Source of the DNA: Bdellovibrionales bacterium | GTDB lineage: Bacteria; Bdellovibrionota; Bdellovibrionia; Bdellovibrionales; UBA1609 | Length of the DNA: 64,000 bases | Direction of reading: 5' to 3' | Assembly: GCA_965199825.1 (NCBI GenBank) | Contig: OZ241329.1 | Span: 1,280,362-1,344,361, forward strand | Shown: piece after piece, positions 8,987 through 61,627 of the stretch | Layout: every line of letters begins with the position of its first letter | Numbering within the stretch: the stretch's first letter is position 1 | Made by a program: the position numbers and the translations under genes | Notes under the pieces: model-generated | Databases searched by the model: none | What the model was told of the DNA's origin: nothing | Seen by the model: only the letters and a program-made list of their open reading frames with translations

Positions 8987-9077
8987 GGGGGCTCCTTTGT
9001 TAATATATTTGTCTAAAGCAGACGGAGCAGCAACTGTTTTTGGGGAGGGCGAAACCAAGACGAGACTAATAGTCTAC

Positions 9078-10655: not shown

Positions 10656-10759
10656 TTTAGAACTCCAAATTGTGATAAATCGTTCGCATAAAAGGAAAAT
10701 ATAGTCGTTAAATCCGAATAAAGGTAGTTATTGTGCTTAACCTTTTTGATAGGAGCTAT

Positions 10760-40953: not shown

Positions 40954-41742
40954 TTAATTCAATCCGCAAGATTGTTGATCGTATATTGTTTTAATTTCTT
41001 TTGCCAAAAGTGCTGTGTTCCACACTGCAGCTTCGGCAATCGTTCCTGATGTCCAATACGCATAACCAGTGTGACCACCAATTTGTAATGTGTAGGTCGA
41101 AGAACTTGTCCACGTGGTACTCGCTGTCCCGTCAGCACGTCCATTGACATAATAGGTGATCGAAGACCCATTGATTACAGCAGCAATAAAATACCATTTT
41201 GCTAATTGCAGCGTAGTTTGCCCAGACGCGCCCGAACCAAAAACAATCTGACCAGGAGGATGTCCATAAGATCCAACTACTCCAAAAATGACATTGTTTG
41301 GACCTGATCTTTGATCGATCACGTAGTTGACGAGACTGGTGTTGTAAGCCGCAAGTTTGATCCATGCACTAAAAGTTAAACCACTTCCGCCTGCAGAACT
41401 GCCAAAGTTCAAAGTGCTTGATGCGGGCACTCCAATGTATCCTGTCGATCCATCGAACAAAGCAGCAGTCGTTCCCACTCGGCCTGGTACTCCTAATGTT
41501 GTTCCACTTTGCGGCACTCCAGTATTTGTAGCGATCGAGGAAGAGTCTGTGACACTTGTTGCTCCATAACTCTCTGCTAAGGTCCAATACCCTACGAGAT
41601 GTGACCACTGCGGTGTCCAACCTGACTTTAATTTATAGCAAGCTCCGCCTGCACCAATCATTGCTGTGAGCGAACTTGTTGGTTGAGCCAGAACAGCAGA
41701 GGGCAGACATAGAATAAAAACTTGAACTAAATAATTTCTCAT
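40954..41742 (-). CDS. LamG (concanavalin-A-like lectin, Laminin_G_3-type) domain protein
   Basis: 'LVGYWTLAES...DSS...ALFDGSTGYIGVP...LTFSAWIKL...WYFIAAVINGSSITYYVNG...LQIGG...GTIAEAAVWNTALLAKEIKTIY'. ATG 41742 overlaps the stop of the 1638-aa fibre gene as ATGA. Signal peptide 'VFILCLPSAVLAQP'. Confidence 0.7.
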   Translation of the reverse strand: MRNYLVQVFILCLPSAVLAQPTSSLTAMIGAGGACYKLKSGWTPQWSHLVGYWTLAESYGATSVTDSSSIATNTGVPQSGTTLGVPGRVGTTAALFDGSTGYIGVPASSTLNFGSSAGGSGLTFSAWIKLAAYNTSLVNYVIDQRSGPNNVIFGVVGSYGHPPGQIVFGSGASGQTTLQLAKWYFIAAVINGSSITYYVNGRADGTASTTWTSSSTYTLQIGGHTGYAYWTSGTIAEAAVWNTALLAKEIKTIYDQQSCGLN

Positions 41743-44700
41743 TGATACCCACTCGCCCAAGTGACATAGCAGTCATAAGTTGAACCATTATATATTGTTG
41801 TCATAGTGATCAGCGTTCCACCAGAACCAGTTGTTACAATGGTATTGGCCGCCGACGACAAGGGTTTGTATTTGATTGATCCACAACTGGCCGCTGAGAA
41901 AACAATATTGATTGAGGCGGTGTCTTTAAAAGAGATCAAATAATTTGCTCCATTTGCAGGAGTTCCGGTAAAGGTGAGTGCCACAGTATCATTTGCAACC
42001 GCAAAGGTCGGACTAATCGAAAATGCATTGGTTGCTGAAAAAGCTAAATTTGCTGCCCAACTTGGACTTGATCCCGTGACGCTTGGACTACTCTGAAGAC
42101 TGACGATGGCTCCATTCACAGTCAGCGCAGTGGTGGGCGAAGATGTGCCGATCCCCACATTGCCGCTCACGATCATTCCATTTGTGGGTGCTGCAAGCAC
42201 ACCACCGTAGGTGCCGAAGGAAGCACTGCCTGCGACGTCGAGGGTTGAAGTGTTGCTGGATGTATTGACCCCGAGACGTGAGCCTGCGCTGTTAGTAATA
42301 TTATAATTGAGAGTACTTCCAGAATTGCCCGAAATCCCTCCGGCATTGGAATAGAATCGAACGCCACCGCCGTAATAAATCAGACTTCCACCACTGGTGA
42401 TATCTAGATTTCCATAAACAGTAAGTGTTGGGTCACTTGCCGAAGTTTCGGCCTTGGCGGTCCCACCGATCGCCATCCAGCCTTGCACATCGGCCGAGCC
42501 GGAGACATCTAAGTTGTTTTGAGGATTACTTGTACCAATCCCCACATTGCCTGATGAATCCACGCGCATTCTCTCAGGCGCATAAGAGTTGTTTATATTT
42601 GTGGTATGAAAAGCAATGTGTCCGTCACCGGCTGCAGCGGTGAGGAGAAGTTGTGCTTGTGCCTTTGAAGCGTCTGTAACTACCCCGTCTGAGATGCGGC
42701 GATTTGAAGAGAGCCCAAAATTATCGCCGTAGGTTCCCAAATAAATTTTGTTGCTGGTGTTTGATGCAACGGCAAGATCTGTATTTGCTGATGCACCGAC
42801 CTGAAGTTGGGCCCCTGGCGATGTTGTTCCAATACCCACATTACCACTCACAATCAAACCATTCGCAGGTGCTGCTGTTACGCCTGCATAACTTCCAACC
42901 GACATTCCACCCGTTACATCCAATGAAGATTTGGGAGCAGCAGTTGCTCCGACGTTGATGGGGCTTGAGATATAATTGTTTGCGCCTCCGTTTGCTTCAC
43001 CTAAACGAAATCCATTTCCTGTCACATAGCCATGACTGTAGGCCGTGCCCATGCAGAGATCACTAATGCAAAGACCATCGGCATTGATTCCACCCACAAC
43101 TGAAAGAGTATTTGTGGGCGAGGTCGTTCCTATTCCAACTTTTCCATTTTTTAAAATTTGAAACGCGGTCGAAGGAGTCGACGCGCTTTGCCCATTCCCA
43201 ATCACGAATAAGGGATCGGTGGCCACCCATGCGTTGGCGGTCTCGCCGCCGTAAGTGTTGTACGTCCCCATAACGGTTTCGTTGTATGCGGGCGCCTTAA
43301 CAGCTGATCCGATGGCGACTGCGCTTTGCCCATTTGCTTGACTTGAAGAACCCAATGCAAGGCTTGCATAGCCTGAAGCATTATTCGCAGTTCCAAGTGC
43401 AACCGAATTTGATCCCGAAGTCTGACTCCCATATCCTAATGCAATCGAAGCAAGTCCGCGCGATGTGCTCGTGTTCGATTGAACCGAACCATCGTTCATC
43501 ACTGTGAAAGCCGAAGTCCCATTCGAAAGAATATTTAGATTGGATGAGCGCACAAGGCATCCATTGTGAGGCACGGCGGATGTTCCTAATTGACCACGCG
43601 AAACTCCGGTAAATGAATTTGATGTGAGTCCCGTGTAGGAGACCGCTTCGGAGTCGAGCCATAAAATTCCAGAAGAGCCGAATCCAGTGGTTGAACTTAC
43701 GGGAATGACAGTGACCGTATTATCGATCGAACCTGCAAAGGTGCCAGCAACAAGGCTTGATGCCGAATTCACTCTGAGACTTCCAGTCACCTCTAGTGTT
43801 TCATTCGGAGTGACCGTTCCAATACCGACCCGACCACCACCCTGAATAGTCATCAACGGGGTTGCGGTGCCCGTATTTGAATAATCGTAGAATCGAAAAC
43901 CACCAACCGTTCCGTATCCACGATTAGCTATGAAGTCGCTTTCACCGTCGCCACCCGAATAATTAGATCCAATCAAATTTTTCCCCTGGAATTCAAGTTT
44001 GGTGAGATCAATAGATGGAGAAAGATTTGGATCCAAATTTCCATTTGGTCCCCCTAAACTGACGACGCCAGAAATATCTAAATTATAACGGGGTGATGTG
44101 GTTCCGATTCCAACACTCCCACCGGTCGCCAAAAGATTTCCGTTGGTGATCGCAACATCACCCCCGCCAAACGCAGAGGGTCCAAAGGATTTGATTGAAA
44201 CTGTATTAAACCCATTGCCTTGACTGATATTAAGAACGCCATTGCCGTAATTATTAAACGCGTTGATCACCGAGTTTGGCCCGTTCGGTACGGTCAATTG
44301 GCCAACATTTGCGGTCCCTGCCACATCGAGTTTGCCACCCATACTAGAATTGTTTGTAACCGTGAGGCCAGTGCCTGTGCCGCTGGCGGTGACTGGTCCA
44401 GAAAAAGTTTCTGTTCCTGCAATTGTCTGGTTGCCCGAAGTGTTGAGCAGTGACCCGTAGGCTCCTCCGTTTTGTGACAACATTAATTGGTTGGAGGTGG
44501 AATCGAAATACATGCGGGCTTGGGCGCTGGGTGCGACCGAAGGCGCAATCGTTCCTCGAAGCGAAATCGCACCGTTAACATCGAAAGTTGAGGCGGGTGA
44601 TGTGGTGCCGATGCCGACATTTCCGCTTGAAGTAATTCTCATCGCTTCGCTTAAAGCTGTAGCATTCGGCCCAACATCAAATGCGATGATTCCATTTGTT

Positions 44701-46655
44701 GTATTCTCGAGACGCAAGTTTGACGAATTTGATTTTAAGACAATGTCACCGTCATTGGTTGTATTTGTCCATGCACCATTGCCAACGGCCACACCGAGGA
44801 CACCCTTTGAAGCCCCATTGGAATCTAAATTTATACCGACAGAATTTGTGCCATCAACTACAAGGCCGTCGTATTGACTGGTAGAAAAAACATGTAGCCG
44901 CTTAGCCGGCGAAGTTGTTCCAATACCAACATTGCCATTAGCAAGAAGTGTCATGACTGTCGTTTCAGCGTTTGGAGGGTCGCCGATTGCGGCTTTGAGA
45001 TTGATATCTAATCGAGTGTTTGGACCATACCCATTAGCAATACTATTCGCCGCGTAGGTTCCAAGTTTAAATGCTGCGGCTTGGGAATAAGAAATGCCAC
45101 CATTGGTCGGTCTTGAAATTTGAAATTCATTTTCGGTTCCTACACCAGCAGCGGCAAGAGACCCGCTAACGTCGAGCGCGGAGTTTGGTGAAGCTGTAGC
45201 AATACCAACTCTTCCACCACGAGGATTTAGGAGTAGAGGTTGGTAGCTTCCTATCTTTGATGAAGAAATATATGCGGCATCGACTGATCCATCATATCCC
45301 ATATATAAACTCTGACCGCTTGTACCGGTATTGATTGCAAAACCGTGAGCGCTTACTTCATACCCACTCGAGCTTGTATCTGCAGTGACTACCAGTTTGG
45401 AAATCGGAGCGTTGTCACCAATTCCTACGTTGCCGTTTGCGGTTACTGTCATGACGTCGCCGATGCCGCTGCGTAAATTTAGAATTCTATTGGTCGCACC
45501 GATGGAAGCTACATTCACAGCTAAACCGTTCGCGTGACTATCTGAAAATTCGTTATTCAAAATCCCCGCGGCATAGCCACCTCCAGAAGTTGCCCACGAG
45601 ATTCCGTTTGAATTTTCATATGAGGTGCTCGCATCGCCAATACCATACGGTGTATTTGCTAATTGGGTAGACGGTGCTGTCGTCCCAATCCCAACAGATC
45701 CATTTCCTAAAATTGTCATTTTCGTTGAAGGGGAGTTACTTGTAGTCCCGCTTGAGGTTGGCGTTGCAGTTTGAAATTGGATTGTCGAACCGCCAGCACC
45801 TGTAGATACCCCAGAAGACAAATTTAAAAATCCTCCACCTTTGTCACTTGAAGATAAGGTTGCGCCACCAGCCGTAACGCTCAAATTGTTGCCCGCACTA
45901 TTCGAAGTGGTCGAGCGCTCCATCGCAATATTGCGCGCGACATTGCCACCAAAACTCAAATCAGAACTAGGATTTGTCGTGCCCACACCAATTTTGCCTG
46001 AGCCTAAACTTAAATTTCCACCTGCAAGTCCAGCAAACGAAGTCGATGTTCCGTTGATCAAAGCGAGCAATTCCGCATAAGGCGTGCTCGCAAAGATCGC
46101 ATCCACTTTAGATTGGGTGGTGTCGCTGCTCGTTTGTATAAAACCCGATGAGGCTGCACTTGAAAGTCTCTCGGCTTCAAAGGCATACGGCACAGACTCA
46201 ATGACGTAAGGCGCAGAAAATGCCACCGTGTCGGGTCCATCAACAAAGCTCACATAAATGTTGCGTGAATCGGTCGGTTGCGGAGTGTAGGCGGTAGCAG
46301 TGGGTGCTCCCACGCAATTTAAACTCGAAAGTGTTCCGGCATTTTGAAAAGCACTGGAGACCGAAAGACCAAGATCATTCGATGTTCTTACACCTGTACC
46401 GAGCGTGACCGCAAAAATGCCGTTCGAGTTTGTCATGTTAAGAGGAAAAGTTTCTTCAAACAAAACACATTCGGGCCGTGAGTTCGCAATCGCCATGCTT
46501 GTGACACGGATAGTGAGATCCACCGTTGAGGACTCAACCACCACGCTGTCTTTTAAAAGTTGTCCTTGAAAGGTGATGCCTTGGGGGGCAGCAAAAGCAC
46601 CGCGGCTGATAATAAAGAGTGCGAGCCCAATCCTGAGCCCTTGTTTTAAATTCAT
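41739..46655 (-). CDS. giant fibre protein E (type-1 N-module, about 12 'GNVGIGTTSP' junctions, Hep_Hag-like repeats, no S74 domain)
   Basis: 1638 aa with signal peptide ending 'GAFA|APQG'. It has the family N-module and ends in a unique ~130-aa domain ('...YDCYVTWASGYQ'). Confidence 0.85.
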   Translation of the reverse strand: MNLKQGLRIGLALFIISRGAFAAPQGITFQGQLLKDSVVVESSTVDLTIRVTSMAIANSRPECVLFEETFPLNMTNSNGIFAVTLGTGVRTSNDLGLSVSSAFQNAGTLSSLNCVGAPTATAYTPQPTDSRNIYVSFVDGPDTVAFSAPYVIESVPYAFEAERLSSAASSGFIQTSSDTTQSKVDAIFASTPYAELLALINGTSTSFAGLAGGNLSLGSGKIGVGTTNPSSDLSFGGNVARNIAMERSTTSNSAGNNLSVTAGGATLSSSDKGGGFLNLSSGVSTGAGGSTIQFQTATPTSSGTTSNSPSTKMTILGNGSVGIGTTAPSTQLANTPYGIGDASTSYENSNGISWATSGGGYAAGILNNEFSDSHANGLAVNVASIGATNRILNLRSGIGDVMTVTANGNVGIGDNAPISKLVVTADTSSSGYEVSAHGFAINTGTSGQSLYMGYDGSVDAAYISSSKIGSYQPLLLNPRGGRVGIATASPNSALDVSGSLAAAGVGTENEFQISRPTNGGISYSQAAAFKLGTYAANSIANGYGPNTRLDINLKAAIGDPPNAETTVMTLLANGNVGIGTTSPAKRLHVFSTSQYDGLVVDGTNSVGINLDSNGASKGVLGVAVGNGAWTNTTNDGDIVLKSNSSNLRLENTTNGIIAFDVGPNATALSEAMRITSSGNVGIGTTSPASTFDVNGAISLRGTIAPSVAPSAQARMYFDSTSNQLMLSQNGGAYGSLLNTSGNQTIAGTETFSGPVTASGTGTGLTVTNNSSMGGKLDVAGTANVGQLTVPNGPNSVINAFNNYGNGVLNISQGNGFNTVSIKSFGPSAFGGGDVAITNGNLLATGGSVGIGTTSPRYNLDISGVVSLGGPNGNLDPNLSPSIDLTKLEFQGKNLIGSNYSGGDGESDFIANRGYGTVGGFRFYDYSNTGTATPLMTIQGGGRVGIGTVTPNETLEVTGSLRVNSASSLVAGTFAGSIDNTVTVIPVSSTTGFGSSGILWLDSEAVSYTGLTSNSFTGVSRGQLGTSAVPHNGCLVRSSNLNILSNGTSAFTVMNDGSVQSNTSTSRGLASIALGYGSQTSGSNSVALGTANNASGYASLALGSSSQANGQSAVAIGSAVKAPAYNETVMGTYNTYGGETANAWVATDPLFVIGNGQSASTPSTAFQILKNGKVGIGTTSPTNTLSVVGGINADGLCISDLCMGTAYSHGYVTGNGFRLGEANGGANNYISSPINVGATAAPKSSLDVTGGMSVGSYAGVTAAPANGLIVSGNVGIGTTSPGAQLQVGASANTDLAVASNTSNKIYLGTYGDNFGLSSNRRISDGVVTDASKAQAQLLLTAAAGDGHIAFHTTNINNSYAPERMRVDSSGNVGIGTSNPQNNLDVSGSADVQGWMAIGGTAKAETSASDPTLTVYGNLDITSGGSLIYYGGGVRFYSNAGGISGNSGSTLNYNITNSAGSRLGVNTSSNTSTLDVAGSASFGTYGGVLAAPTNGMIVSGNVGIGTSSPTTALTVNGAIVSLQSSPSVTGSSPSWAANLAFSATNAFSISPTFAVANDTVALTFTGTPANGANYLISFKDTASINIVFSAASCGSIKYKPLSSAANTIVTTGSGGTLITMTTIYNGSTYDCYVTWASGYQ

Positions 46656-46679
46656 AATCTCTCCATAAATTATTTTTAT

Positions 46680-47057
46680 TTAACGAGCTTGAACCAATCT
46701 TTCCAATTGCTCGATCCGAGCTTTGAGCTCGGCTGATTCTTGTTTTGATTTTTGTTCTGCTTGTTCGAGATCTACGATTCGCTGTTTTAATTGCGTATTT
46801 TGACTATAAATCGTTTTTATTGACTCAATCACAGGAGCGATAAGGTGATCGTAGACAACCGATTTCAATCCTGACTCAGGATCGGTTTTTATCGATTGAG
46901 GATAAACCTTTTCGACATCTTGTGCGATCAATCCAATCTGCTCTTGATTTCCAAAATGCTCCTGGTCTTTCCAGTCGTAACTAACACCCTGAAGTTTTAA
47001 GATATTCTCGAGCGAATTTTGAAGTGGATCGATATTATTTTTTAGGCGCACGTCCGA
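46680..47057 (-). other. Peptidase_S74-type intramolecular chaperone/autoprotease domain plus coiled-coil tail (fibre D)
   Basis: 'SDVRLKNNIDPLQNSLENILKLQGVSYDWKD...IGLIAQDVEKVYPQSI...VVYDHLIAPVIESIK' has the Ser...Lys (S-D-x-R-x-K) dyad spacing known from endosialidase and tail-spike C-terminal chaperone domains. Confidence 0.8.
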
Positions 47058-50000
47058 GGGTGATGAACACCCAGTCGACGTGCAAACTTGAGTTCCGCCT
47101 ACGCGCAAAACATTTGTTGATGCGATATTGATGTCGCCGTTGACGTCAAGTTTGTAGGCGGGTGACGTGGTTCCGATACCGACGTTTCCGCTGACGATAA
47201 GCCCATTGGCTGGCGCAGCCGTTCCTGCATATGCTCCGATTGCGGCTTCGCCCGCAACATCAAGATGGTTCACTGGATAAATACTGATTCCGATATTATT
47301 ACTTTTTAAATAACTTGTTCCGCCGTAAGTGTTTCTAATTGTAACAGTCCCATCATATCCAAAAGCCAGTCCTGCACTCACAACTCCAGCGACATCAAGA
47401 GAATCATTAGGAGCGGTCGTCCCAATACCGACACGACCCGCCGAATAAGACAGATTCGAACCATTCTGATTCCAATAACTCGAAGTTGAAGTTCCAACAG
47501 GCACTCCATTGACGGTGAGCGATGTTGCGTTCACGGTGCCTGCGACATCAAGCTTTGTTGCCGGATTTGTTGTTCCAATTCCCACATTGCCGGTGCCATT
47601 CGGTTTGATAATAATATTGTGATTGGTTGCGCCACCGCCGCCATCGCTCGTTATAAACAAAGCTGAATTATACGTTGTGAGAGAAGCTGTATTTACACTT
47701 GAATCATAATTTGAAAACATAATTCCAGAATTCATTCTCAGGCTTCCATATTGATCAAATAGGGAGGTGCCCGCAGAACTCGTAAAGCTTGCCACATCTG
47801 TTCCGGTGGGGCTTGAGACTGAGAGTCTCGCCCCTGGATTTGATGTGCCTATGCCGACGTTGCCGGAAAAATAAGAAGGTGCTGTCGGATCGCTCGTGTA
47901 GATAGACCACTTGTTGGTTCCTTGGACTAAACCTGTGTACACACCATAGGCGGTTGAGATGACCGAACCTAGATTTTGGGTGACGGCAAAAGATCCACCA
48001 CTGGCAGTGGTAATACCACCAGTGCCTGACGTGTAGACTCCACCGTTGATTGCAGTCGCACTCCCAATTGTGGTGTTGTAGGCATTTTGCGCTTGTGCTT
48101 CGAAGCCACGAATAATTCCACTTGGAGAATTTGCTCCATTAAAACTGACTGTCGAATATCCTCCGCGGACAGTAGCAGTGGATGCACTGGATGGATAAAA
48201 ATTCTGATTCATAATAAACGCGTTGGAGCTTCCGGATGAAAGACTGACATTACCTCCCTCAACATCCAGCAAAGCAGAAGGGGCTGTTGTGCCTATGCCG
48301 ACGTTGCCGTTCGGCAGCATAGTCACGATATTTGAACCGTTGGTATTGAAATCGTATCCAGCATAGCTGGATTGAGATCCATTAAAGGTCAGTCTGCCCG
48401 TTGTTCCATTCCGGTTTAGAGAATATCCGTAGCCGGTTCCGTTATACAGACCGAGGCCAGCCCCAGCGACGATACTGCCGGTAAAACTAAAGTTTTGAAA
48501 GCCATCGGTGGAAATTGAGCTTGCTAAAGTGCCGTCTGAACGTTGTGTCTGGATAAGCGGTGAATTTGAATCAGCTATTTTAAAGACGGAGCCCGTAACC
48601 TTAACGCTTCCAGTGACATCCAGTGCTTGAGACGGGTTCGTAATACCGATCCCAACATTCCCACCAACAATCAACGACCCACCTATACTAGAATTATTTA
48701 CTACCGATAATCCAGTGCCTGTGCCACTTACTGTGACTGCGCCGGAAAAAGTTTCGGCTCCCGCTACAGTTTGACCACCTGAAGTACTAAGCAGAGAGCC
48801 GTAAGCTCCACCGTTCTGTGAAAGCATCAGTTGATTCGATGTCGAATCAAAATACATTCTGGCCTGTGCGGTTGGCGAAAGTGCTGGCGCCGACATCGCA
48901 TGCAGCGAAACCGCGCCATTAAGATCAAGAGTCGATGCGGGTGAGATTGTGCCGATGCCGACGTTGCCTCCGTTTGGATTTAATAAAATCGGGTAACTCA
49001 CACCAAAATTTCCACGATCGTGCCCTTGAAACCAAATACCATTTGGTGGCGATGCATAAGCTCCAATGTCTAATAGATTTCCATAGGCATAGCTGCCGCC
49101 GACTCGTAAAATTCCTACCGGGGCAGCTGCATTTCCATTGTAGTCGCTGGTCGTGCCAGCGATTTCAAGAGGGAGCGATGGGTGAGTTGTGCCGATTCCG
49201 ACATTCCCATCATTTCCGCTACCGGTCGTCTTGCTCCCAGGTTTTAGGAGTATGTGTCCGCCATTGCCGCCACCATTACCCCCACCATTTCCTGCAGTGA
49301 CAACAACACTTCCTCCGCTGCCGCTCAGTGATCCGTCTGCTGCGGTGATATTTATATTTGATGAAGCGTCTGAGGCTGAATTGCCGAAGAAGAGGGTCCC
49401 ACTTCTGATGTTAACTGCGCCTCCACCATAATTTCCGCCTCCAGCAGTTATGTTTACCGCACCACCACCGCCCGATCCGTTGCCAGCAGAAAGATTAAGA
49501 ACACCGCCAAGACCATTTGCTGATGAAGCACTGCTTGCCGCTCCTGCAGAGATGTTCACAGTACCAGCATTGCCATGGCCGGCTGCAGGATCTGTATTCG
49601 AACCTGCGGTGAGAGTTATATTTCCAGCAGTCGGTCCAGCATAAATATCGTTATTGCTCGAGCCTGCGACTAAAAAAATTGAAGCCGGGCTTGTACTTGT
49701 CGGAGCTCTCACATCTAGGATGCCTGCAGGATTTGTTGTGCCAATTCCCACATTCCCATTATACCCGATTCGCATTCTTTCTTGATTTAAACCAAAACTA
49801 TTTAAGACACCACTTGTTCTAAAAACAATATTGGTATTGTCGTCATCAAAATTGGATTGTCGAAGAACTCCAATCGACGCGAATGGTGAATTAGTGCTTT
49901 GGTTTGAGCCAAAAATAATATTTCCCATCGATGATCCGTCGTCAGGATTCCCATGCGTGTCATGTAAAAAGACTTGAGGGGAAGATGCGGTAACATCCAG

Positions 50001-51011: not shown

Positions 51012-51020
51012 CTGTCATCC

Positions 51021-51395
51021 TTAACGCTTTTGATTGAGCTTTTCGAGTTGATCCATGCGTGACATCATCGCCGCAGTTTGTTCTTCGAGTTGGACTACGC
51101 GTTCCTTGAGGGCTTTGTTTTCTGTATCTAACGAAGTGATTCTTTCATAAATAGTTTTTATTGATTCAATCACAGGAGCGATAAGATGGTCATAAGCAAT
51201 AGACTTGTAACTTGAACGTAAATCGGTCTTAACCGCTTGGGGATATATTTTTTCGACATCTTGTGCGATCAAACCGATCTGTTCTTCTGCTCCGAATGAT
51301 TCTTGATTCCAGTGATAGCTTACACCTTGCAGCTGCAAGATTTTTGCAAGTGAATCTTCAAGTGGCTCAACATGGTTTTTGAGTCTGAGGTCTGA
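51021..51395 (-). other. S74-type intramolecular chaperone domain (fibre C)
   Basis: 'SDLRLKNHVEPLEDSLAKILQLQGVSYHWNQ...IGLIAQDVEKIYPQAV...IAYDHLIAPVIESIK' plus a heptad-like tail. Confidence 0.8.
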
Positions 51396-54300: not shown

Positions 54301-54791
54301 GCACTCGACAGTCTTTCGGCCTCGATGGCATAAGGCACCGACTGAATCACATAAGGTTGAGCAAAGGCCACGGTGTCTGGTCCATCAACAAATGAGACAT
54401 AAATGTTCCGTGAGTCGGTGGCTAAAGGTGTGTACGCAGTTGCGGTTGGTGCCCCCACACAGTTCAAGCTCGACAATGTTCCGGTGTTGGCAAAAACATT
54501 TGAGATCGAAAGACCAAGATCATTTGATGTTCTCGTGCCCGTGCCTAAAGTGACCAAAAATATGCCGTTCGAGGCGGTCATATTAAGAGAATAGCTTTCT
54601 TCAAACAAGGTGCATTCAGGGCGCGTGCCACTCACAGGCATGCTGGTGATTTTGATTGTGACATCCACGTTTGAGTCTTCGACAATCACACCGTCTTTTA
54701 AAAGTTGGCCTTGGAAGGTGAGGCCTTGGGGGCCAGCAAAAACGGATCGACAAAAAAGAGCGAAAACAAAAAACCATAAATTCAATTTCAC
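51021..54791 (-). CDS. giant fibre protein C (type-2 N-module, 'NTALG' beta-roll repeats, C-terminal S74 domain)
   Basis: 1256 aa with a GTG start after 'aaggaag' and signal 'RSVFA|GPQG'. It has the family N-module, repeats at about 52075-52640, and the C-terminal 'SPSDLRLKNHVEPL...'. Confidence 0.85.
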   Translation of the reverse strand: MKLNLWFFVFALFCRSVFAGPQGLTFQGQLLKDGVIVEDSNVDVTIKITSMPVSGTRPECTLFEESYSLNMTASNGIFLVTLGTGTRTSNDLGLSISNVFANTGTLSSLNCVGAPTATAYTPLATDSRNIYVSFVDGPDTVAFAQPYVIQSVPYAIEAERLSSAASSGFLQTSSDTTQSKVDAIFASTPYAELLALINGTSTSFAGLAGGNLNLGSGRIGVGTTNPSSDLSFGGNVARTIAMERATSSQGNNLTVSAGGATTSSTDQNGGTLNLSSGISTGAGSSAIQFQTSSPASSGTLSNSPSTKMTVLGNGNVGIGTTTPQANLEIQGSTASNLASTSNILQLIRPLNSGVAWPNVATFKLGSYTNGYGPTTELDINLKSTANISATGDYNVMTLLSNGNVGIGTTTPVSTLQVMGTTSAKQFLSTDGYGGRSGLASFVNNSSDGGSVHYYESGSGIGTPYTVTGGMLQYVGSTQTAALKFLNGSTPLVGQIDLSSGGTSVLRVVENGSVGIGTTSPSALLDVYGIGRMAGLGIGTNSMTDGSSLHTLSAYAGNSTVLLEYSGAPTSLVGPSIGLKRTGASKYFLIADDTINNDALSFQLNDGTKIVTITQSGKVGVGTTSPVDDFQINGGITAWRFTSGYGAPNAVNFGNYGNGFYYDANGAAISSNATERIRVLSNGNVGIGTTSPASSLDVNGTISVNGLNAFSLPPDSCTPAGSSIAIGNNALKNQTTGTCGTGSYNIAIGTYAMGSGSPLTGSNNLAIGFKSLTNVNSGGNNACVGNGSCTVLSTANNTTALGLNTAYRVTTGSQNTALGASALQNVTTTNYNTAVGWNSLINTTGSRNTALGASSGSTNVSGSDNILVGNGVGSATLQSGSSNILIGNSVDTPLAATSNYLNIGNVIFATGMNGTLAAPAGNVGIGKINPKLPLDIAGSTLDSNGSEISPAGMLRIESSNGYGNLLDIGAYAAYPNGIWFQAHDRGNFGATYPILLNPKGGNVGIGTLTPSAKLNIVSDAGTDALFIASQYGDAFRVNQYGVSIFNANLVAGYDANISSFAYSAFNDLYITSGYQQSPSKNIIIKPAGNGNVGIATLSPAYTLDVSGDVNIASANVLRFGGNSVCSSSGCTSPSDLRLKNHVEPLEDSLAKILQLQGVSYHWNQESFGAEEQIGLIAQDVEKIYPQAVKTDLRSSYKSIAYDHLIAPVIESIKTIYERITSLDTENKALKERVVQLEEQTAAMMSRMDQLEKLNQKR

Positions 54792-54812
54792 GAAACTTCC
54801 TTTAATAAAACT

Positions 54813-55226
54813 TTACTGCATTAACATTTCGAGCCGAGCCATACGCTTGAGCATTTGTGCATTTTCTTTTTCAAGACGATCCATTCGAATCGTCATCTGG
54901 GCTTTTTCTGATTCAAGTTGTTCGGATTTTAATTTCAACGCTGCAAGCTCCGAATCGGTTGAGATCAATTTTGAGTAAATAGATTTAATTGACTCAATAA
55001 TTGGCGCAACCAAATGATCATAGGCCACCGATTTGATGCCGGATTGAGAATCTGTTGAGATCGCTTCGGGATAAATTTTTTCGACTTCTTGAGCGATCAA
55101 GCCAATTTGTTTATTTTTGTTAAATCGCTCTTTGTCTTGCCAGTCATAACTGACGCCACGAAGATCTAAAATATTTTCTAAAGCATTCTCAAGAGGCTGA
55201 ATATTTTCTTTGAGTCGCAAGTCAGA
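54813..55226 (-). other. S74-type intramolecular chaperone domain (fibre B)
   Basis: 'SDLRLKENIQPLENALENILDLRGVSYDWQD...IGLIAQEVEKIYPEAI...VAYDHLVAPIIESIK' plus a long coiled-coil-like tail. Confidence 0.8.
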
Positions 55227-58200
55227 AGGTGAAGTGCATCCGGTCGAAGAGCAAACTTGGTTGCCGCCAAAGCGAAGTAGATTTGCCGAAGCAATATTCA
55301 AATCTCCACCCACATCGAGTTTGTAGCCAGGTGTTAAAACTCCAACACCCACATTTCCATTTGAGAGGATGTCCATGTAGTGGCTGTAGGCAGCACTGTT
55401 GTAGTTTTGAAATGTGATGCGCCCATTGTTGCCAGCAATAAAATCCAACTGCCCAACTCTTCCAGAGTAATTCGGACCATAAAGCGTCATTGCTGCGCCG
55501 TCGTTTGATCCTGTGTTGGCAGCAAAATCGATTCTTCCTGAGCTGTCGTCTGTTCCGGTTCGGGCGGCATAAATAGATGGCGAATTTCCAGAAAGTTTTA
55601 TTTTTCCTGCAACTTCGAGCATTTCGGATGGGCTGATCGTGCCGATTCCAAATCCCGAACCGGTTAGACGCATTCGTGGTGTGCCGCCGAGATACCAGTT
55701 CATCGTGTTCATCCCAATAAATCCAAAACTCAACTCGTTGTACGATTCAACGGTTACAAGATTCTGATTATTTCCGGCGGTGTCTTTTCCGTAGAGCGCA
55801 TTTCCATTTGCGATCACCATACTCCCATTCACATCGAGTGTGGCTGAAGGTGATGTTGTGTTGATTCCAACTTTGCCAGGTGCTGCGCTGTAAAGTCCTA
55901 CGCCCGGTTGTAAAATAATATTTCCGCCTGAGTATCCTGAATTAACACCGGTACCTGCTGTGACATTGACGTTTCCGCCAGAGGCTCCGGGTGAAGTTCC
56001 GCCATTGCCTGCAGTGAGGTTGAGTGCGCCACCGGTAGCGTAGAGAGAATTACCACTAATTATGTTTATAGGGCCTCCTGCGCCATTACCGCCCGCATAC
56101 CCTCCGTTGAGATTAAGCGCTCCGCCTACAATATTGCCTTTTGAAGTTCCACTTGAAAGTGTCAGCGCTCCAGCCGCACCATTTCCGCTGCTTGTATTCG
56201 ATCCCGATTGTAAAGTGACTGCTCCTGCAGTTGTAGACGTGGCGCTATTTCCTGCAACAAGGTTGATCGCCGCGGAATTTGAGCCGCCCTCCACATCTAA
56301 AATTCCAGCAGGACTTGTCGTCCCGATCCCAACATTGCCCGCAGAGTCGATGGCCAAACGCGATGTTGAATTAGTAATCAAAGACAGTTTAGCTGAGGCC
56401 GCGTCTGCACCCATCCCGATTCCGCTGTAATCGCGAAATCCAAACGCGGGCACGGTCATTGTTGAAGTCGAAAGCGCAATGTAAGCCCCCGCAGTGGTAG
56501 CTCTCATGGCCTGCTTCAATTCAATTTCACCGCCATAAGAAAATAAAACGGGCGAGCCGCAGTTTGAAATTCCGATGCTGCAATTGGCATTGCTGTAAAG
56601 ACCACCCACATTCGGAATTGAAAATGCAGGAGAAGTGACGCTACTTGCTCCTGATGAAGCAAACGAACTCGATGTGAGCGATCCACCAACATTTGCATTG
56701 TTGGTGACCGATAAGCCAGTACCCGCGGCACTTGCGGTCACTGCACCAGAAAATGTTTCTGCCCCAGAAATAGTTTGTCCACCTGAGGTGCTTAAGAGTG
56801 ATCCGTATGCGCTTCCATTTTGAGAAATCATCAGCTGATTCGCCGTTGAATCGAAATACATTCGTGCTTGTGCCACAGGCGAAAGTGGGGGAGCCGAACT
56901 TGCTCGCAAAGAAAATGCACCATTCAGATCGAGAGGTGTGGCGGGAGATGTTGTGTTGATTCCAACATTTCCGCTCGAGCTCACTTGCAAACCAGTATAG
57001 TTTATATAGTAATTTAAATTTGGTTTTGTTTGCGAGATCGATACAATCATCGAACTGCTACTGGAGACAGAAAGTATTGTTCCCCCCGCAACACCGTCTG
57101 CAAAAACGAATTGCGAACCAATAAGGTCTGAGGTCCACATCGTTCCTGAACCGGTGATTGTGGTTCCTGACTGCGTTGCCAATCCGGTTTGATATTGAGC
57201 GGGCGATGCAGAAAATGGATTCATCGGAAACAGAGTATTCACCCCAACATAACTCGAGTTCTTCACAATCAATCCCGTTGTGAAGTTCAGGCCTACTCCT
57301 GCAGCTGGCACTGCTGGAGCTGTCCGTAATAAAATATCACCGTGATCAAATCCGATTTGTTGAGCCGGATTGTAGGCTGTTTGACTTGCCCAAAATCCAA
57401 TGTTGGTTGTTCCTGCTGACAAATAGTAATTTCCGAAAAAGGGTTGAAAGTTGAAACTGCTGCCACCAGGGGTGCTATTCATACTGATCGATCCGTAATC
57501 ACCAACCGAGAAATTTATTTTCTGTCCCCGAACGTCGAGCTGACTTCCAGGACTTGTCGTCCCGATCCCAACATTGCCCGCACCATCAAATCGCGCGACC
57601 TCTTTCGTTGTTCCGCTTTGAGCGGTAGAAATCGCTAAGTAGCCGCCCTCACTTCCTTGAGTCGTAGTTTGAATTCCAGATGTAATATTTGAAAAATCAA
57701 ATTTGTTTCCGCTACCATTTAACGCTTCGAACAACATTCTTGGTGAAGCCACATTTGAGATTCTAAAAACATCGGTACTATCACTTGCGACGTAGAGCTT
57801 TGAAAATGCATAAGGACTGGCTTCACCAATCCCGACATTGCCGGATGGAGAAATGGTGAGAGCCGCATAATTCGGCGAGCGATCGGTTGTTCCGTTGCCT
57901 TGAAAACTTTTAACAATATTTAAAGCGATGCCCGAGCCGCCATTGCCGGTTGCCATTCCCGCATTTAAATTGAGTGTTCCACCATTTTGATTGGTGCTCG
58001 ATGAAGTCGCACCACCCGCAGCCACAGTTAAATTATTTCCTTGCGACGAAGTCGCGCGTTCCATCGCAATCGTGCGCGCGACATTGCCACCAAAACTGAG
58101 ATCTGAACTGGGATTCGTCGTGCCCACACCAATTCTGCCTGAGCCCAAATTTAAATTACCGCCTGCAAGTCCTGCAAACGAAGTGGAGGTGCCGTTGATC

Positions 58201-58772
58201 AATGCGAGCAATTCCGCATAAGGCGTGCTCGCAAAAATCGCATCCACTTTAGATTGGGTGGTGTCGCTGCTGGTTTGTAAAAAACCCGACGACGCCGCAG
58301 TCGAAAGTCTTTCGGCTTCAAAGGCATAAGGGACGGATTCAATCACATAAGGAGCAGAAAATGCCACGGTGTCAGGTCCATCAACAAAGCTCACATAAAT
58401 ATTTCGTGAATCAGTGGGCTGCGGAGTGTAGGCGGTAGCAGATGGTGCTCCTATACAATTCAAACTCGAAAGTGTTCCCGCATTTTGAAAAACATTGGAG
58501 ACCGAAAGACCAAGATCATTGGACGTTCTTACACCTGTACCTAAAGTCACCGCAAAGATGCCGTTCGAATTTGTCATGTTGAGTGGAAAGGTTTCTTCGA
58601 ATAAAACACATTCAGGCCTCGTGTTTATCATGGGCATGCTTGTCACTCGAATGGTGAGGTCTACAGTGGGCGACTCAACAACCACGCTGTCTTTTAAAAG
58701 CTGTCCTTGAAAGGTGATGCCTTGAGGGGCAGCATAAATAAAATGTGTTAAAATTAAATTTAATAAAATCAT
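54813..58772 (-). CDS. giant fibre protein B (type-1 N-module, Gly-rich beta-helix-like segment, C-terminal S74 domain)
   Basis: 1319 aa with signal 'HFIYA|APQG'. Its N-module is nearly identical to that of fibre E. C-terminal 'SPSDLRLKENIQPL...'. Confidence 0.85.
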   Translation of the reverse strand: MILLNLILTHFIYAAPQGITFQGQLLKDSVVVESPTVDLTIRVTSMPMINTRPECVLFEETFPLNMTNSNGIFAVTLGTGVRTSNDLGLSVSNVFQNAGTLSSLNCIGAPSATAYTPQPTDSRNIYVSFVDGPDTVAFSAPYVIESVPYAFEAERLSTAASSGFLQTSSDTTQSKVDAIFASTPYAELLALINGTSTSFAGLAGGNLNLGSGRIGVGTTNPSSDLSFGGNVARTIAMERATSSQGNNLTVAAGGATSSSTNQNGGTLNLNAGMATGNGGSGIALNIVKSFQGNGTTDRSPNYAALTISPSGNVGIGEASPYAFSKLYVASDSTDVFRISNVASPRMLFEALNGSGNKFDFSNITSGIQTTTQGSEGGYLAISTAQSGTTKEVARFDGAGNVGIGTTSPGSQLDVRGQKINFSVGDYGSISMNSTPGGSSFNFQPFFGNYYLSAGTTNIGFWASQTAYNPAQQIGFDHGDILLRTAPAVPAAGVGLNFTTGLIVKNSSYVGVNTLFPMNPFSASPAQYQTGLATQSGTTITGSGTMWTSDLIGSQFVFADGVAGGTILSVSSSSSMIVSISQTKPNLNYYINYTGLQVSSSGNVGINTTSPATPLDLNGAFSLRASSAPPLSPVAQARMYFDSTANQLMISQNGSAYGSLLSTSGGQTISGAETFSGAVTASAAGTGLSVTNNANVGGSLTSSSFASSGASSVTSPAFSIPNVGGLYSNANCSIGISNCGSPVLFSYGGEIELKQAMRATTAGAYIALSTSTMTVPAFGFRDYSGIGMGADAASAKLSLITNSTSRLAIDSAGNVGIGTTSPAGILDVEGGSNSAAINLVAGNSATSTTAGAVTLQSGSNTSSGNGAAGALTLSSGTSKGNIVGGALNLNGGYAGGNGAGGPINIISGNSLYATGGALNLTAGNGGTSPGASGGNVNVTAGTGVNSGYSGGNIILQPGVGLYSAAPGKVGINTTSPSATLDVNGSMVIANGNALYGKDTAGNNQNLVTVESYNELSFGFIGMNTMNWYLGGTPRMRLTGSGFGIGTISPSEMLEVAGKIKLSGNSPSIYAARTGTDDSSGRIDFAANTGSNDGAAMTLYGPNYSGRVGQLDFIAGNNGRITFQNYNSAAYSHYMDILSNGNVGVGVLTPGYKLDVGGDLNIASANLLRFGGNQVCSSTGCTSPSDLRLKENIQPLENALENILDLRGVSYDWQDKERFNKNKQIGLIAQEVEKIYPEAISTDSQSGIKSVAYDHLVAPIIESIKSIYSKLISTDSELAALKLKSEQLESEKAQMTIRMDRLEKENAQMLKRMARLEMLMQ
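57973..58266 (-). repeat. near-identical ~294-nt tract shared with 60273-60566 (fibre B vs fibre A)
   Basis: My base-by-base comparison at a constant offset of 2300 nt finds only 3 mismatches. The flanks diverge much more. Confidence 0.8.
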
Positions 58773-58801
58773 TTGGGTCCCTTTTCAATAGATAGCAATC
58801 T

Positions 58802-59179
58802 TCAATGAGGAGAAATTAATTTTTCAAGGCGTTCGAAGCGTGCCGAAGATTGAGCCGCCTCAAACTCAAGCTGACTCACTTTTTCCTTAAGCACTGCATT
58901 TTCGTTTCTTAAAGCTGTGATTTGTTCATAAATTGATTTTATTGATTCAATGACAGGAGCCACAAGATGATCGTAAGCAATCGATTTAAAGCCCGATTCA
59001 GAATCAGTTTTTACAGTTTCTGGATAAATAGCTTCGACTTCTTGTGCAATCAAACCGACTTGATTTTGTTTTCCAAACTGACTTTGATTTTTCCAATGAT
59101 AATTCACACCTTGAAGCTTTAAAATATTCTCAAGAGAGTTTTGCAGCGGCTCAATATCTTCTTTTAACCGCGCATCTGA
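58802..59179 (-). other. S74-type intramolecular chaperone domain (fibre A)
   Basis: 'SDARLKEDIEPLQNSLENILKLQGVNYHWKN...VGLIAQEVEAIYPETV...IAYDHLVAPVIESIK'. Confidence 0.8.
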
Positions 59180-61072
59180 TGGCGAGGTACATCCAGTTGA
59201 GGAACACACTTGGGTTCCACCAAAACGCAAGGCATTTGCTGAAGCGATATTTATGTCGCCATTGACGTCGAGCTTGTAATTGGGCGGATTCGTCCCGATC
59301 CCGACGTTGCCGCCGCCCGAGGGCAGCAATAAAATACTACTCATAGAATTGGAGCCCCAACCCGATGTTAAATAAAGTGAGTTTACAGATCCGTATCCAC
59401 CGGGACCGCCGAGATTTGGATCGTTTCCGACAATTTGTCCGTTTGAACTTGAAAGTCCGCCGTAGCGATCAAAAGTAAAATTCGAGTAGGGTGTGGCGAT
59501 GCGAACAAGATCAACGCCCGTTGCACCTTGCACAACCAGCGGCATTGCGGCAGAAGTTGTTCCAATCCCCACATTGCCGCTAAAAGTTGCGTTTCCCACA
59601 CCATCATCAATCAAATTTCGAAATACGGGATTTCCAAATGCACCACTCATACTGCCAACAGCGCCGTTCGGGTTCATTCCAAAAAATGTTTGGTTGCCAT
59701 TGGCGGGGATAGCACCTTGTAACGCGCCCGAAATGTTGTACATCCCGAGTTGAGCTTTTCCGTAGCTCTGGCCAAAATAGGATCCTAAGGTTCCACTAAA
59801 ATCTCCGGCGTTGCGTATTCTTAAACTTGGATCTGTTATCACTGCTTCGACTACACCAGAGGGAGAATTTGTGCCCAAGCCGACATTTCCAGTGCCTCGA
59901 TCGATGAACAAAGCGGAGATGCCCGCGTAAGAACTCTCATGGCGGAGTATGTTTAATCCGCGGGGAATTATGTCTTCGTTGTTGATTGTGAATCCGTAAT
60001 AATCATCATAAAAACGCAACTTGATTCCATTGGTGTGAATGCTTCCTCCGGCACCGTTGATTCTTAGATAAGCATTCGCGGGTGTGTTGATGAGAGCTGA
60101 AAGTTCGAGCAACTCTGTTGGTGCTGAATTTCCGATCCCTACATTGCCATTTCCAAGCAAGGTCATCCTTGTCGAAGGCGTATTACTCGCAGTCCCTGAA
60201 CTTGCAGACGAAGAAGTCTGAAACTGAATCGCCGATGCACCAGCGCCCGTAGAAATCCCAGATGAAAGATTCAGTGTTCCACCATTTTGATTGGTGCTCG
60301 ATGATGTCGCACCACCCGCAGCCACAGTTAAATTATTTCCTTGCGACGAAGTCGCGCGTTCCATCGCAATCGTGCGTGCGACATTGCCACCAAAACTGAG
60401 ATCTGAACTGGGATTCGTCGTGCCCACACCAATTCTGCCTGAGCCCAAATTTAAATTACCGCCTGCAAGTCCTGCAAACGAAGTGGAGGTGCCGTTGATC
60501 AATGCGAGCAATTCCGCGTAAGGCGTGCTCGCAAAAATCGCATCCACTTTAGATTGGGTGGTGTCGTTGCTGGTTTGCAAAAATCCCGATGACGTCGCAG
60601 TCGAAAGTCTTTCGGCCTCAATTGCATAAGGGACCGACTGAATCACATAAGGTTGAGCAAAGGCGACGGTGTCGGGTCCATCAACAAACGAGACATAAAT
60701 ATTTCGTGAGTCGGTGGGGAGTGGAGTGTAGGCCGTTGCGGTTGGTGCACCCACACAATTCAAACTCGAAAGTGTTCCGGAGTTTGCAAAAACATTTGAG
60801 ATCGCAAGTCCAAGATCATTTGCGGTTCTGGTGCCCGTACCTAAAGTGACTAAAAATATTCCGTTGGATGCGGTCATATTTAAAGAATAACTTTCCTCAA
60901 ACACCGTACATTCTGGCCGTGTACCCGCAACCGGCATGCTGGTGATTTTAAAAGTGACATCGACATTTGAGTTTTCGACCACGACACCGTCTTTTAAAAG
61001 TTGACCTTGAAAAGTCACACCTTGAGGTCCGGCATAAACAAATTGGCTGAAACAAAAAATAAAGAAGAACAT
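58802..61072 (-). CDS. fibre protein A (type-2 N-module, short shaft, C-terminal S74 domain)
   Basis: 756 aa with signal 'SQFVYA|GPQG'. It has the family N-module and the C-terminal 'SPSDARLKEDIEPL...'. It starts 9 nt after the lipoprotein gene. Confidence 0.85.
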   Translation of the reverse strand: MFFFIFCFSQFVYAGPQGVTFQGQLLKDGVVVENSNVDVTFKITSMPVAGTRPECTVFEESYSLNMTASNGIFLVTLGTGTRTANDLGLAISNVFANSGTLSSLNCVGAPTATAYTPLPTDSRNIYVSFVDGPDTVAFAQPYVIQSVPYAIEAERLSTATSSGFLQTSNDTTQSKVDAIFASTPYAELLALINGTSTSFAGLAGGNLNLGSGRIGVGTTNPSSDLSFGGNVARTIAMERATSSQGNNLTVAAGGATSSSTNQNGGTLNLSSGISTGAGASAIQFQTSSSASSGTASNTPSTRMTLLGNGNVGIGNSAPTELLELSALINTPANAYLRINGAGGSIHTNGIKLRFYDDYYGFTINNEDIIPRGLNILRHESSYAGISALFIDRGTGNVGLGTNSPSGVVEAVITDPSLRIRNAGDFSGTLGSYFGQSYGKAQLGMYNISGALQGAIPANGNQTFFGMNPNGAVGSMSGAFGNPVFRNLIDDGVGNATFSGNVGIGTTSAAMPLVVQGATGVDLVRIATPYSNFTFDRYGGLSSSNGQIVGNDPNLGGPGGYGSVNSLYLTSGWGSNSMSSILLLPSGGGNVGIGTNPPNYKLDVNGDINIASANALRFGGTQVCSSTGCTSPSDARLKEDIEPLQNSLENILKLQGVNYHWKNQSQFGKQNQVGLIAQEVEAIYPETVKTDSESGFKSIAYDHLVAPVIESIKSIYEQITALRNENAVLKEKVSQLEFEAAQSSARFERLEKLISPH
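60273..60566 (-). repeat. near-identical ~294-nt tract shared with 57973-58266
   Basis: See the partner feature: 3 mismatches in about 294 nt. Confidence 0.8.
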
Positions 61073-61081
61073 TTATTTTCC

Positions 61082-61627
61082 TTACCTTTGGAAGGTTTGG
61101 GTTTGGACGCCGCCTTTGAGCGTGTAGCGGCCACTTGTTTTTACAGCTCCTGGCTCTTGGTTTCCAAAATTGCCTAGCAGCTCGTAGCGACTATCGGTGG
61201 ATGTGATTTTTTTTGCGCCAGCGATGGCTCCAAAGACCGATCGGCCCATGGGTGTTGTGAACACAACGTCGGATTTTAATACGATTGCCACATTGTTAAC
61301 CAAAATTGTTTTCACCCCCACTTGAGTGCTTCGCAAAATGCAGGTGGATACTCCATTGCTATTCGAAGTTGTGCAGGGCAGAGCGGTGACGCCACCGCCT
61401 GACACAACAGTGTAGGTGGGTCTAAATCCAACAACCGGAGTGCTGTCAGAATTTGTTAATTGGATGACGATCAATAAATCGGATTGCCCATCAGCTGCAG
61501 CAGGACCGTTGGAAATGATTTCTGATTTTTTAAAATCTTGGATCGATGCGTGTTTGAAAGTTCCAGTGATGGTGCCTTTTGAGCAGTTGACCAAAAACAA
61601 AAAAGTGAGAAAAATAAAAAAACGCAT
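61082..61627 (-). CDS. lipoprotein with bacterial Ig-like (Big_1-type) domain, first gene of the fibre array
   Basis: Lipobox 'FLVNC'. 'AADGQSDLLIVIQLTNSDSTPVVGFRPTYTVVSGG...NSNGVSTCILRSTQVGVKTILV'. It has the same size and layout as the lipoprotein at 2965-3531. Confidence 0.6.
   Translation of the reverse strand: MRFFIFLTFLFLVNCSKGTITGTFKHASIQDFKKSEIISNGPAAADGQSDLLIVIQLTNSDSTPVVGFRPTYTVVSGGGVTALPCTTSNSNGVSTCILRSTQVGVKTILVNNVAIVLKSDVVFTTPMGRSVFGAIAGAKKITSTDSRYELLGNFGNQEPGAVKTSGRYTLKGGVQTQTFQR

Follow-up and report, generated by a model that had tools for sequence, protein, structure and literature searches.

Evidence for two-layer mosaic evolution in a tandem array of predicted mosaic adhesive trimer fibre genes from a Bdellovibrionales bacterium

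We analysed a 64,000-nt stretch of the genome of a Bdellovibrionales bacterium (assembly GCA_965199825.1, contig OZ241329.1, positions 1,280,362 to 1,344,361), hereafter the window, in which five large genes, named A to E, lie in tandem on the minus strand. Very probably, these are paralogous fibre genes of the mosaic adhesive trimer (MAT) family in a predator of the Bdellovibrionota, which have evolved as mosaics in two layers and carry a recurrent GNVGIGTT junction motif that matters at the level of the protein. In the older layer, the stalks would be permutations of modules drawn from a wide fibre-module pool, which is common also to proteins without a MAT N-domain. In the younger layer, ongoing homologous recombination or gene conversion would keep the 5' kilobase of the genes similar and reshuffled among the paralogues, which would account for the presence of two N-domain types in non-adjacent genes and for a 294-nt tract that is 99% identical between A and B. 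Both layers are directly visible in the comparisons below, and from these we infer the processes behind them.

All five genes are full-length, have the same orientation, are separated by spacers of 9-29 nt and are probably co-transcribed; promoter and terminator scans remained at chance level. The common plan of the encoded fibres would be a Sec signal peptide, a beta-rich N-domain of ~135 aa, a short neck, a stalk of beads of ~50-240 aa and, at the C-terminus, either an S74 domain or a free tip. Gene A (58802-61072; 756 aa) encodes a type-2 MAT N-domain, neck, bead 1, a unique bead, a pre-S74 bead and an S74 chaperone (open reading frame (ORF); NF053851, 106 bits; PF13884, E = 1.8e-19; SDARLK at aa 632). 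Gene B (54813-58772; 1319 aa) encodes a type-1 N-domain, an A-like neck, an AQARMYF module followed by a Gly-rich block, and S74 (ORF; NF053851, 100 bits; PF13884, E = 1e-19). Gene C (51021-54791; 1256 aa) comprises a type-2 N-domain, the C2/E4 module, a bead of YadA-head-like repeats, the YGNLL module, a pre-S74 bead and S74, and gene D (46680-51011; 1443 aa) a type-2 N-domain, Gly-rich block, YGNLL, AQARMYF, pre-S74 bead, ANGLIVS half-bead and S74. Gene E (41739-46655; 1638 aa) has a type-1 N-domain, C2/E4, AQARMYF, a YadA-head-like bead, two ANGLIVS half-beads and an orphan tip, with no S74 (NS74 type). C, D and E begin with conventional signal peptides. Those of A and B are very short and have no basic n-region (MFFFIFCFSQFVYA followed by G, with the start at 61072, and MILLNLILTHFIYA followed by A, with the start at 58772), and both ORFs can be extended upstream by 0-4 codons at most. 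The proteins of the source genome that were looked up are singletons at 90% identity.

Judged from their sequences, A-E are newly recognised members of the Bdellovibrio MAT fibre family and not a new kind of system, because all five match NF053851, A-D carry S74 domains with the SDxxxK motif and E ends in an orphan tip. The family was defined in B. bacteriovorus HD100, with chimerism as its defining idea (Caulton et al. 2024, Nat Microbiol, PMC10769870). Against NF053851 (Bdello_MAT_N, 'mosaic adhesive trimer family chimeric fiber protein'), for which the cut-off is 60 bits, A-E score 100.4-106.4 bits, and the matches span model positions 2 or 4 to 161 of 162. A word-indexed homologue search with the N-domain returned one protein, and membership was settled by the NCBIfam scan. 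The closest relatives come from metagenome-assembled genomes of Bdellovibrionales and Bdellovibrio and from Peredibacter. The AlphaFold2 (AF2) model of the N-domain is beta-rich, with nine strands and a confidence score (pLDDT) of 82; a Foldseek search of this model against PDB folds returned only generic Ig-like sandwiches with TM < 0.45, in agreement with Caulton et al. (PMC10769870), who report no significant fold match for the MAT N-domain. In a sequence search of the PDB with E, the only matches below E = 0.01 were the MAT structures 8OML and 8OND (bd2133), with the MAT entry 8OJN at E = 0.085, whereas the search with D gave nothing at E <= 0.01. The alignments to 8OML, 8OND and 8OJN, all of which sit at junction motifs, are weak (E = 0.003-0.08, HMMER).

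At the C-terminus, Peptidase_S74 (PF13884) is found in A-D with E = 1e-17 to 1e-19, at 58805-59179 in A, 54816-55226 in B, 51024-51395 in C and 46683-47057 in D. The catalytic motif of this intramolecular chaperone and protease domain reads SDARLK, SDLRLK, SDLRLK and SDVRLK, respectively, and the four domains should self-cleave after trimerisation. In gene E no S74 domain was found with Pfam; the protein has instead a separate C-terminal tip of ~120 aa (aa 1517-1638, 41742-42107), predicted to be all-beta, with a single homologue among 5.8 billion sequences. The AF2 model of this tip, from an alignment of two sequences, has a pLDDT of 51, and Foldseek found no match for it at E <= 0.001. By analogy with the family, the N-domain would sit on the predator surface, and the fibres would display differing stalk and tip chemistries for recognising or handling prey surfaces.

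The N-domains fall into two types, type 1 in B (58284-58727) and E (46143-46586) and type 2 in A (60584-61027), C (54288-54731) and D (50502-50945). This division had been proposed in the initial annotation, and its diagnostic strings occur in exactly the proteins named there: regular-expression searches found those of type 1 only in B (aa 27, 54 and 138) and E (aa 35, 62 and 146) and those of type 2 only in A, C and D. Twenty residues are fixed and type-specific, and all of them lie within aa 15-151 of A. The observation that the two types are not adjacent in the array is also correct. As proof of shuffling it fails: the five N-domains belong to a single clade, which comprises two sub-clades, so that an interleaved order alone proves nothing; the domains are 75-91% identical to one another and at most 61% identical to any outside sequence.

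Evidence for exchange comes from the codon alignment of the shared 5' kilobase (N-domain, neck and bead 1) of the five genes. Incompatible splits are spatially clustered: B+E versus A+C+D dominates alignment nt 71-522, and A+B+C versus D+E dominates nt 711-830. The pairwise homoplasy index (PHI) is 0.308, compared with a permutation mean of 0.4025 (standard deviation 0.009), and none of 2000 permutations gave a value as low. Neighbour-joining trees of adjacent segments disagree with strong bootstrap support. In the N-domain, B groups with E (100%) and A with D (92%), whereas in the next 356 alignment columns A groups with B (100%) and D with E (87%). The initial annotation had named congruence of all per-module trees with a serial-duplication history as the outcome that would overturn the mosaic reading; the 100% support for B+E in the N-domain and for A+B in the following ~350 nt is the opposite outcome, and the mosaic reading therefore stands. 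Recombination among the paralogues is thus demonstrated.

The one exchange that can be dated is recorded in the neck and the first half of bead 1, where A (60273-60566) and B (57973-58266) share a gene-conversion tract with 291 of 294 nt identical, measured by direct nucleotide comparison at an offset of 2300. Identity drops abruptly to 22-42% on the 3' side of this tract and decays to about 56-90% on the 5' side. The synonymous divergence (dS) between A and B drops from 1.12 in the N-domain to 0.026 in the neck within 100 nt. At 71 of the 73 discriminating sites in the tract A is B-like, and beyond the tract it is D-like. One end of the tract lies at the boundary between N-domain and neck and the other in mid-bead, ~42 codons short of the next junction. 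On these comparisons gene B is a chimera, with an E-like N-domain, an A-like neck and a stalk of its own.

Internal stalk modules were mapped by ungapped window dot plots, bead-wise BLAST and module profile searches; gapped BLASTP of whole proteins merged everything into long alignments of low identity and was useless for this purpose. The AQARMYF module occurs in B (56658-56972, aa 601-705), D (48654-48968, aa 682-786) and E (44310-44624), with 69-75% aa identity and dS of 1.7-2.0, and profile searches found it absent from A and C, as the initial annotation had stated. The further claim that it lies at different distances from the N-terminus applies only to B, in which the 'AQARMYFDST...' string lies at aa 634 (56873-56736), the positions in D (aa 715, 48869-48732) and E (aa 711, 44525-44388) being nearly equal; the sequence preceding the module nevertheless differs in all three proteins. 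The YGNLL module (D 48927-49208, aa 602-695; C 51753-52034) has 68% aa identity and saturated synonymous sites, and regular-expression and profile searches agree in limiting the YGNLLDIGAYA block to C (aa 961) and D (aa 643), as had been noted. The Gly-rich block is found in D (49209-49703, aa 437-601) and B (55878-56285, aa 830-965), with the motif at aa 503 and aa 915, respectively. The two copies are alike beyond composition, with a Smith-Waterman score of 215 against 102 +/- 10 for shuffled sequences (z = 11). Its reported restriction to B and D holds for the full block, but the short 'G.LNL..G' sub-motif is present in bead 1 of all five proteins. Profiles of the AQARMYF, YGNLL and Gly-rich modules detected no copy in the remaining paralogues, and the identical strings of 20-46 residues cannot be attributed to chance.

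The order of the modules is also informative. AQARMYF precedes the Gly-rich block in B and follows it in D, an inversion that insertions and deletions alone cannot produce. Three further shared modules were identified beyond the earlier list: (i) the C2/E4 module in E (44937-45161, aa 499-573, bead 4) and C (53589-53798, aa 332-401, bead 2), with 46% identity and E = 1.5e-17 in BLASTP; (ii) the pre-S74 bead in A (59312-59578), C (51528-51794) and D (47592-47864), with 33-40% aa identity, which in D is separated from S74 by two further beads; and (iii) the '...AAPANGLIVS' half-bead, present once in D and twice in E. In addition, one bead in E (aa ~1040-1130, 43266-43538) consists of short YadA-head-like repeats (SxAxG, NTALG; PF05658, E = 4e-5, just under the cut-off), which suggests a second module class, of the trimeric autotransporter adhesin type, inside MAT stalks. 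By eye, a longer bead in C (aa ~720-905, 52077-52634) has the same repeats.

The beads are delimited by 43 copies of a junction motif, G-N-V-G-I-G-T-T-x-P-x-x-x-L-x-V, which divides the proteins into units of ~50-240 aa. It resembles the published capping-loop consensus of MAT proteins, V-G-G/N-pi-x-x-P-x-x-x-L (PMC10769870), from which it differs by one residue in the spacing to the proline. The residues of 8OND aligned to the motif are G683 and E813/N814, where the numbering assumes that chain residue 1 is N662, consistent with the 370-residue construct and the residue letters. Because these residues are the limits of two beta-helix domains in Caulton et al., the motif appears to mark structural domain boundaries in the solved MAT fibres.

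The initial annotation had proposed that the proteins are mosaics assembled by recombination at these junctions. The conflicting trees, PHI and the B/D inversion bear out mosaicism and recombination, but the role given to the junctions is only partly upheld: block edges are enriched there, whereas junction codons are random and the A/B tract ends elsewhere. In its strong form the proposal makes the junctions DNA-level crossover sites, i.e., short homology boxes of a cassette system that yields new fibres at appreciable frequency, which we consider unlikely. With homology blocks delimited independently of the beads, 14 of 28 edges of displaced blocks lie within -6 to +20 aa of a junction, compared with 5.7 +/- 1.8 expected and none of 5000 randomisations reaching 14, although the conserved motif itself draws block ends towards junctions; selection alone also predicts edges at a motif that is a structural boundary, and a junction lies inside three of the seven blocks. 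The fraction of identical codons at conserved junction positions is slightly raised, 0.328 against 0.307 expected from codon usage, a value reached in 47 of 2000 simulations, and a few pairs of junctions share longer exact identity. Foremost among these is a 35-nt identity between B399 and B812 (aa 397-409 and 810-822; 57548-57582 and 56309-56343), the sole non-orthologous junction pair with more than 22 nt exact; its surroundings are unrelated and its length is far above expectation for random synonymous codons, and it could reflect a micro-conversion or could serve as substrate for deletion or duplication of the intervening 1.2 kb. The pairs D902/D1050, C682/D602 and B601/B966 have exact identities of 20-22 nt. 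Against these few stand the 903 junction pairs as a whole, ~89% of which share fewer than 10 nt in register, most of them 5-9 nt, and the sole recent tract, neither end of which lies at a junction. Moreover, no recombinase or reverse-transcriptase gene was found among the scanned window ORFs and no inverted repeat of at least 24 nt in 39000-63500, and on the same two observations a diversity-generating retroelement or shufflon was rejected.

Because the junction codons are essentially random, conservation of the motif appears to lie in the protein and not in DNA that serves for recombination. There is little support at the DNA level for crossover targeted to the motif, nor is such targeting required. 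It is most economical to regard the motif as a domain-boundary (capping) element of beta-helical beads, not itself a DNA recombination signal, and to suppose that selection retains recombinants that break there and so respect the domains.

The two layers differ in age. Displaced internal modules and S74 domains have 33-75% aa identity, with dS at least 1.65 or not computable, whereas dS in the 5' region is 0.03-1.4. Between paralogues, S74 has 61-68% aa identity and dS of at least 1.65, with half of the pairs saturated, and the S74 domains of A-D are 56-64% identical to one another compared with 57-60% to an outside protein (P0011). Because synonymous sites are saturated and the S74 domains distant while the N-domains form a tight clade, the stalk permutations appear to be ancient, and the 5' ends appear to have been homogenised or exchanged recently, with exchange continuing. 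Since the synonymous sites are saturated, the DNA mechanism of stalk permutation can no longer be read.

Serial tandem duplication with divergence and differential insertions and deletions from one long ancestor, with no exchange between copies, is very improbable. It fits the single clade of the five N-domains, the single though weakly supported clade of the four S74 domains and the collinearity of most shared modules, and the internal modules are too old for DNA-level exchange to show. It fails in the 5' region, where the topologies of adjacent segments are incompatible, each with 100% bootstrap, where no permutation reached the observed PHI and where the A-B dS falls so steeply. Nor does it explain the inverted order of AQARMYF and Gly-rich block in B and D, or 5' ends that coalesce far more recently than the 3' ends. 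PHI, the conflicting topologies and the A/B tract refute serial duplication as the sole process.

Several points weigh against two-layer mosaicism in a MAT array, or against parts of it. The trees are small, with five sequences. Exchange need not account for all of the old module permutations, since longer ancestors could have lost modules differentially; the B/D order inversion is the sole case in which transposition, or duplication plus loss, is strictly needed. The trimerisation, surface location and prey binding of A-E would follow from likeness to the family, and the predicted fold of the stalk from those same weak alignments to the MAT crystal structures (E = 0.003-0.08). The signal peptides of A and B, short and with no basic n-region, are also unfavourable.

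The module pool extends well beyond this array. Among 1.84 billion proteins, the AQARMYF profile matched 563 cluster representatives, 63 of them at E <= 1e-10, in proteins of very diverse lengths and at all relative positions, sometimes repeated. Only six of the top 150 matches have a MAT N-domain. In B. bacteriovorus (locus L054; LUKE01000002, 159435-183565), three MAT genes with S74 stand in tandem and a fourth lies 5 kb upstream; their proteins have a common module of 180-210 aa, 79-88% identical, at positions 614, 671 and 487, with three copies in the fourth protein. Peredibacter HCB2-198 is reported to have 29 MAT genes, 20 of them contiguous (PMC13147790). Because of the module reuse in L054 and the arrays of Peredibacter, reuse of modules at varied positions and tandem arrangement are family properties, not specific to this window. 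The N-domain has its closest outside relative in P0001 (268 aa; L047:8145-8951), after which comes a 770-aa S74 ORF (8948-11260); together they resemble a single MAT gene that a frameshift has divided. This arrangement recurs in L048-L053 and is seen in at least six samples, while in L055 the orthologue (P0015, 864 aa) is undivided. The split could mark a pseudogene or a programmed shift, or be a frameshift independent of sequencing.

The neighbourhood of the array is that of an ordinary chromosome, in which a domain scan of the window ORFs identified chemotaxis, two-component and porin genes. On the 3' side, a gene for a secreted LamG/concanavalin-like product (40954-41760, minus strand) overlaps the end of gene E and is followed by a gene for a GH5 glycoside hydrolase lipoprotein (39391-40884, minus strand); a second, weaker GH5-like gene (25856-27763, plus strand) lies 14 kb off. 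The LamG-like and GH5 products may bind or cut glycans in partnership with the fibres. The least credible alternative is a domesticated tail-fibre cluster, from a prophage or a tailocin, for although the S74 domains, the BppL-like neck motif (E = 0.06), fibre modules common to phage proteins and many homologues annotated as 'tail fiber domain-containing protein' recall phages, no phage gene for baseplate, tube, sheath or other structural parts, for lysis or for integration was found among the scanned window ORFs, the neighbours are chemotaxis, two-component, GH5, LamG and outer-membrane protein genes, and A-E each carry a signal peptide and the MAT N-domain, which is specific to Bdellovibrio.

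On the 5' side of the array are two genes that recur with MAT genes elsewhere. The first, 9 nt upstream of gene A, encodes a 181-aa lipoprotein with an Ig-like, Big_1-like domain (61082-61627, minus strand; weak Pfam match to Big_1). The second encodes a 508-aa FecR-like protein (61719-63245, minus strand; weak Pfam match to FecR) with a Pro-rich linker and a C-terminal domain resembling an outer-membrane barrel (...RLGFDF). A lipoprotein of this family lies directly upstream of MAT genes in L001 (4263-4889), L047-L053 (L047:7552-8145), L055 (9408-10001) and L056 (7939-8526), and every copy found directly precedes a MAT N-domain gene. The family is absent from the B. bacteriovorus locus L054, and a metagenome scan for the lipoprotein returned one locus only. 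The C-terminal 300 aa of the FecR-like protein are 41% identical to a protein encoded two genes before MAT in L001 and L047-L051, and in L056 a FecR-containing gene of 691 aa occupies the same position.

A sixth MAT-like gene (3546-8300, plus strand; 1584 aa) is located near the other end of the window, in a region of higher G+C content (up to 0.53). Its N-domain shares 35-38% identity with the N-domains of A-E, its C-terminus carries Gly_rich_2 (PF21722), and its stalk has no GNVGIGT junctions and contains two near-identical internal repeats of ~140 aa. It is preceded by genes for a paralogous lipoprotein (2965-3531, plus strand; 26% identity) and an OmpA-family barrel protein (1565-2968, plus strand). 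The triad of barrel protein, small lipoprotein and MAT gene thus occurs twice in the window, at 63245-61082 before the array and at 1565-3531 before 3546-8300, and also in three other lineages (L001, L047/L055 and L056). Caulton et al. (PMC10769870) state that it is not known to which surface element the MAT N-domain binds, and they make no mention of a lipoprotein. We tentatively put forward the barrel, FecR-like or OmpA-like, together with the Ig-like lipoprotein, as candidate partners that would anchor the MAT N-domain at the surface or serve in its export, a possibility that we regard as a lead and not as a result. If it is true, gene conversion at the 5' end would exist to keep the fibres compatible with a single anchor, leaving stalks and tips free to permute. 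The pair is a concrete candidate for the fibre anchor and is the most novel by-product of the analysis.

No prey-recognition proteins other than MAT fibres are known at present in Bdellovibrio-like predators, organisms that are under consideration as living antibiotics. In this context, one compact locus shows how a predator can diversify its fibres, the anchor end being kept uniform by gene conversion and the stalk being drawn from a widely shared module pool, and it offers a dated example of exchange between neighbouring genes.

Comparison with other fibre systems places these features in perspective. Trimeric autotransporter adhesins (YadA-like) are, like the predicted fibres of the array, modular and trimeric, and have the YadA-head-like repeats in common with the array, but no C-terminal YadA_anchor beta-barrel was detected by Pfam in any of the five proteins, in which the conserved and presumably anchoring domain is N-terminal; assignment to this class was therefore rejected. 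Phage tail fibres and receptor-binding proteins, including the S74-bearing T5 pb1 and K1F endosialidase, resemble the predicted fibres of the array in being trimeric and beta-helical, with a C-terminal intramolecular chaperone. As in mosaic phage fibres, modules are exchanged between otherwise unrelated fibres, and the second half of AQARMYF resembles the neck of the lactococcal phage protein BppL (E = 0.06); shuffling of protein fragments has been described in phage receptor-binding proteins (Smug et al. 2023, PMC10684548). The array differs in that its genes are chromosomal, presumably in a cellular predator, with no phage genes nearby, and in that their products carry Sec signal peptides and a predicted cell-surface domain at the N-terminus, where phage fibres have a domain for attachment to the virion.

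Concerted evolution by gene conversion occurs in tandem surface-protein gene families. The array is similar to these in its homogenised 5' ends, its patchwork of phylogenetic signals and the near-identical tract between neighbours. It differs from cassette-switching systems in that no silent cassettes, expression site or programmed switching were seen.

The closest comparison is with the MAT proteins of B. bacteriovorus HD100. Common to both are a signal peptide followed by a beta-rich N-domain, a long stalk with a repeated capping-loop or junction motif, S74 (SDxxxK) and non-S74 members, a chimeric architecture with swapped tips, and several paralogues per genome, some of them in tandem, as in L054 and Peredibacter. 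The tip of E, in turn, has one known homologue and no recognisable fold. MAT mosaicism itself was already known, and the published account stresses tip swapping; what the array adds is internal permutation of the stalk, a division of the N-domain into two sub-types, a gene-conversion tract that can be dated, and the orphan tip of the NS74 member E. The published picture is thereby refined, not changed.

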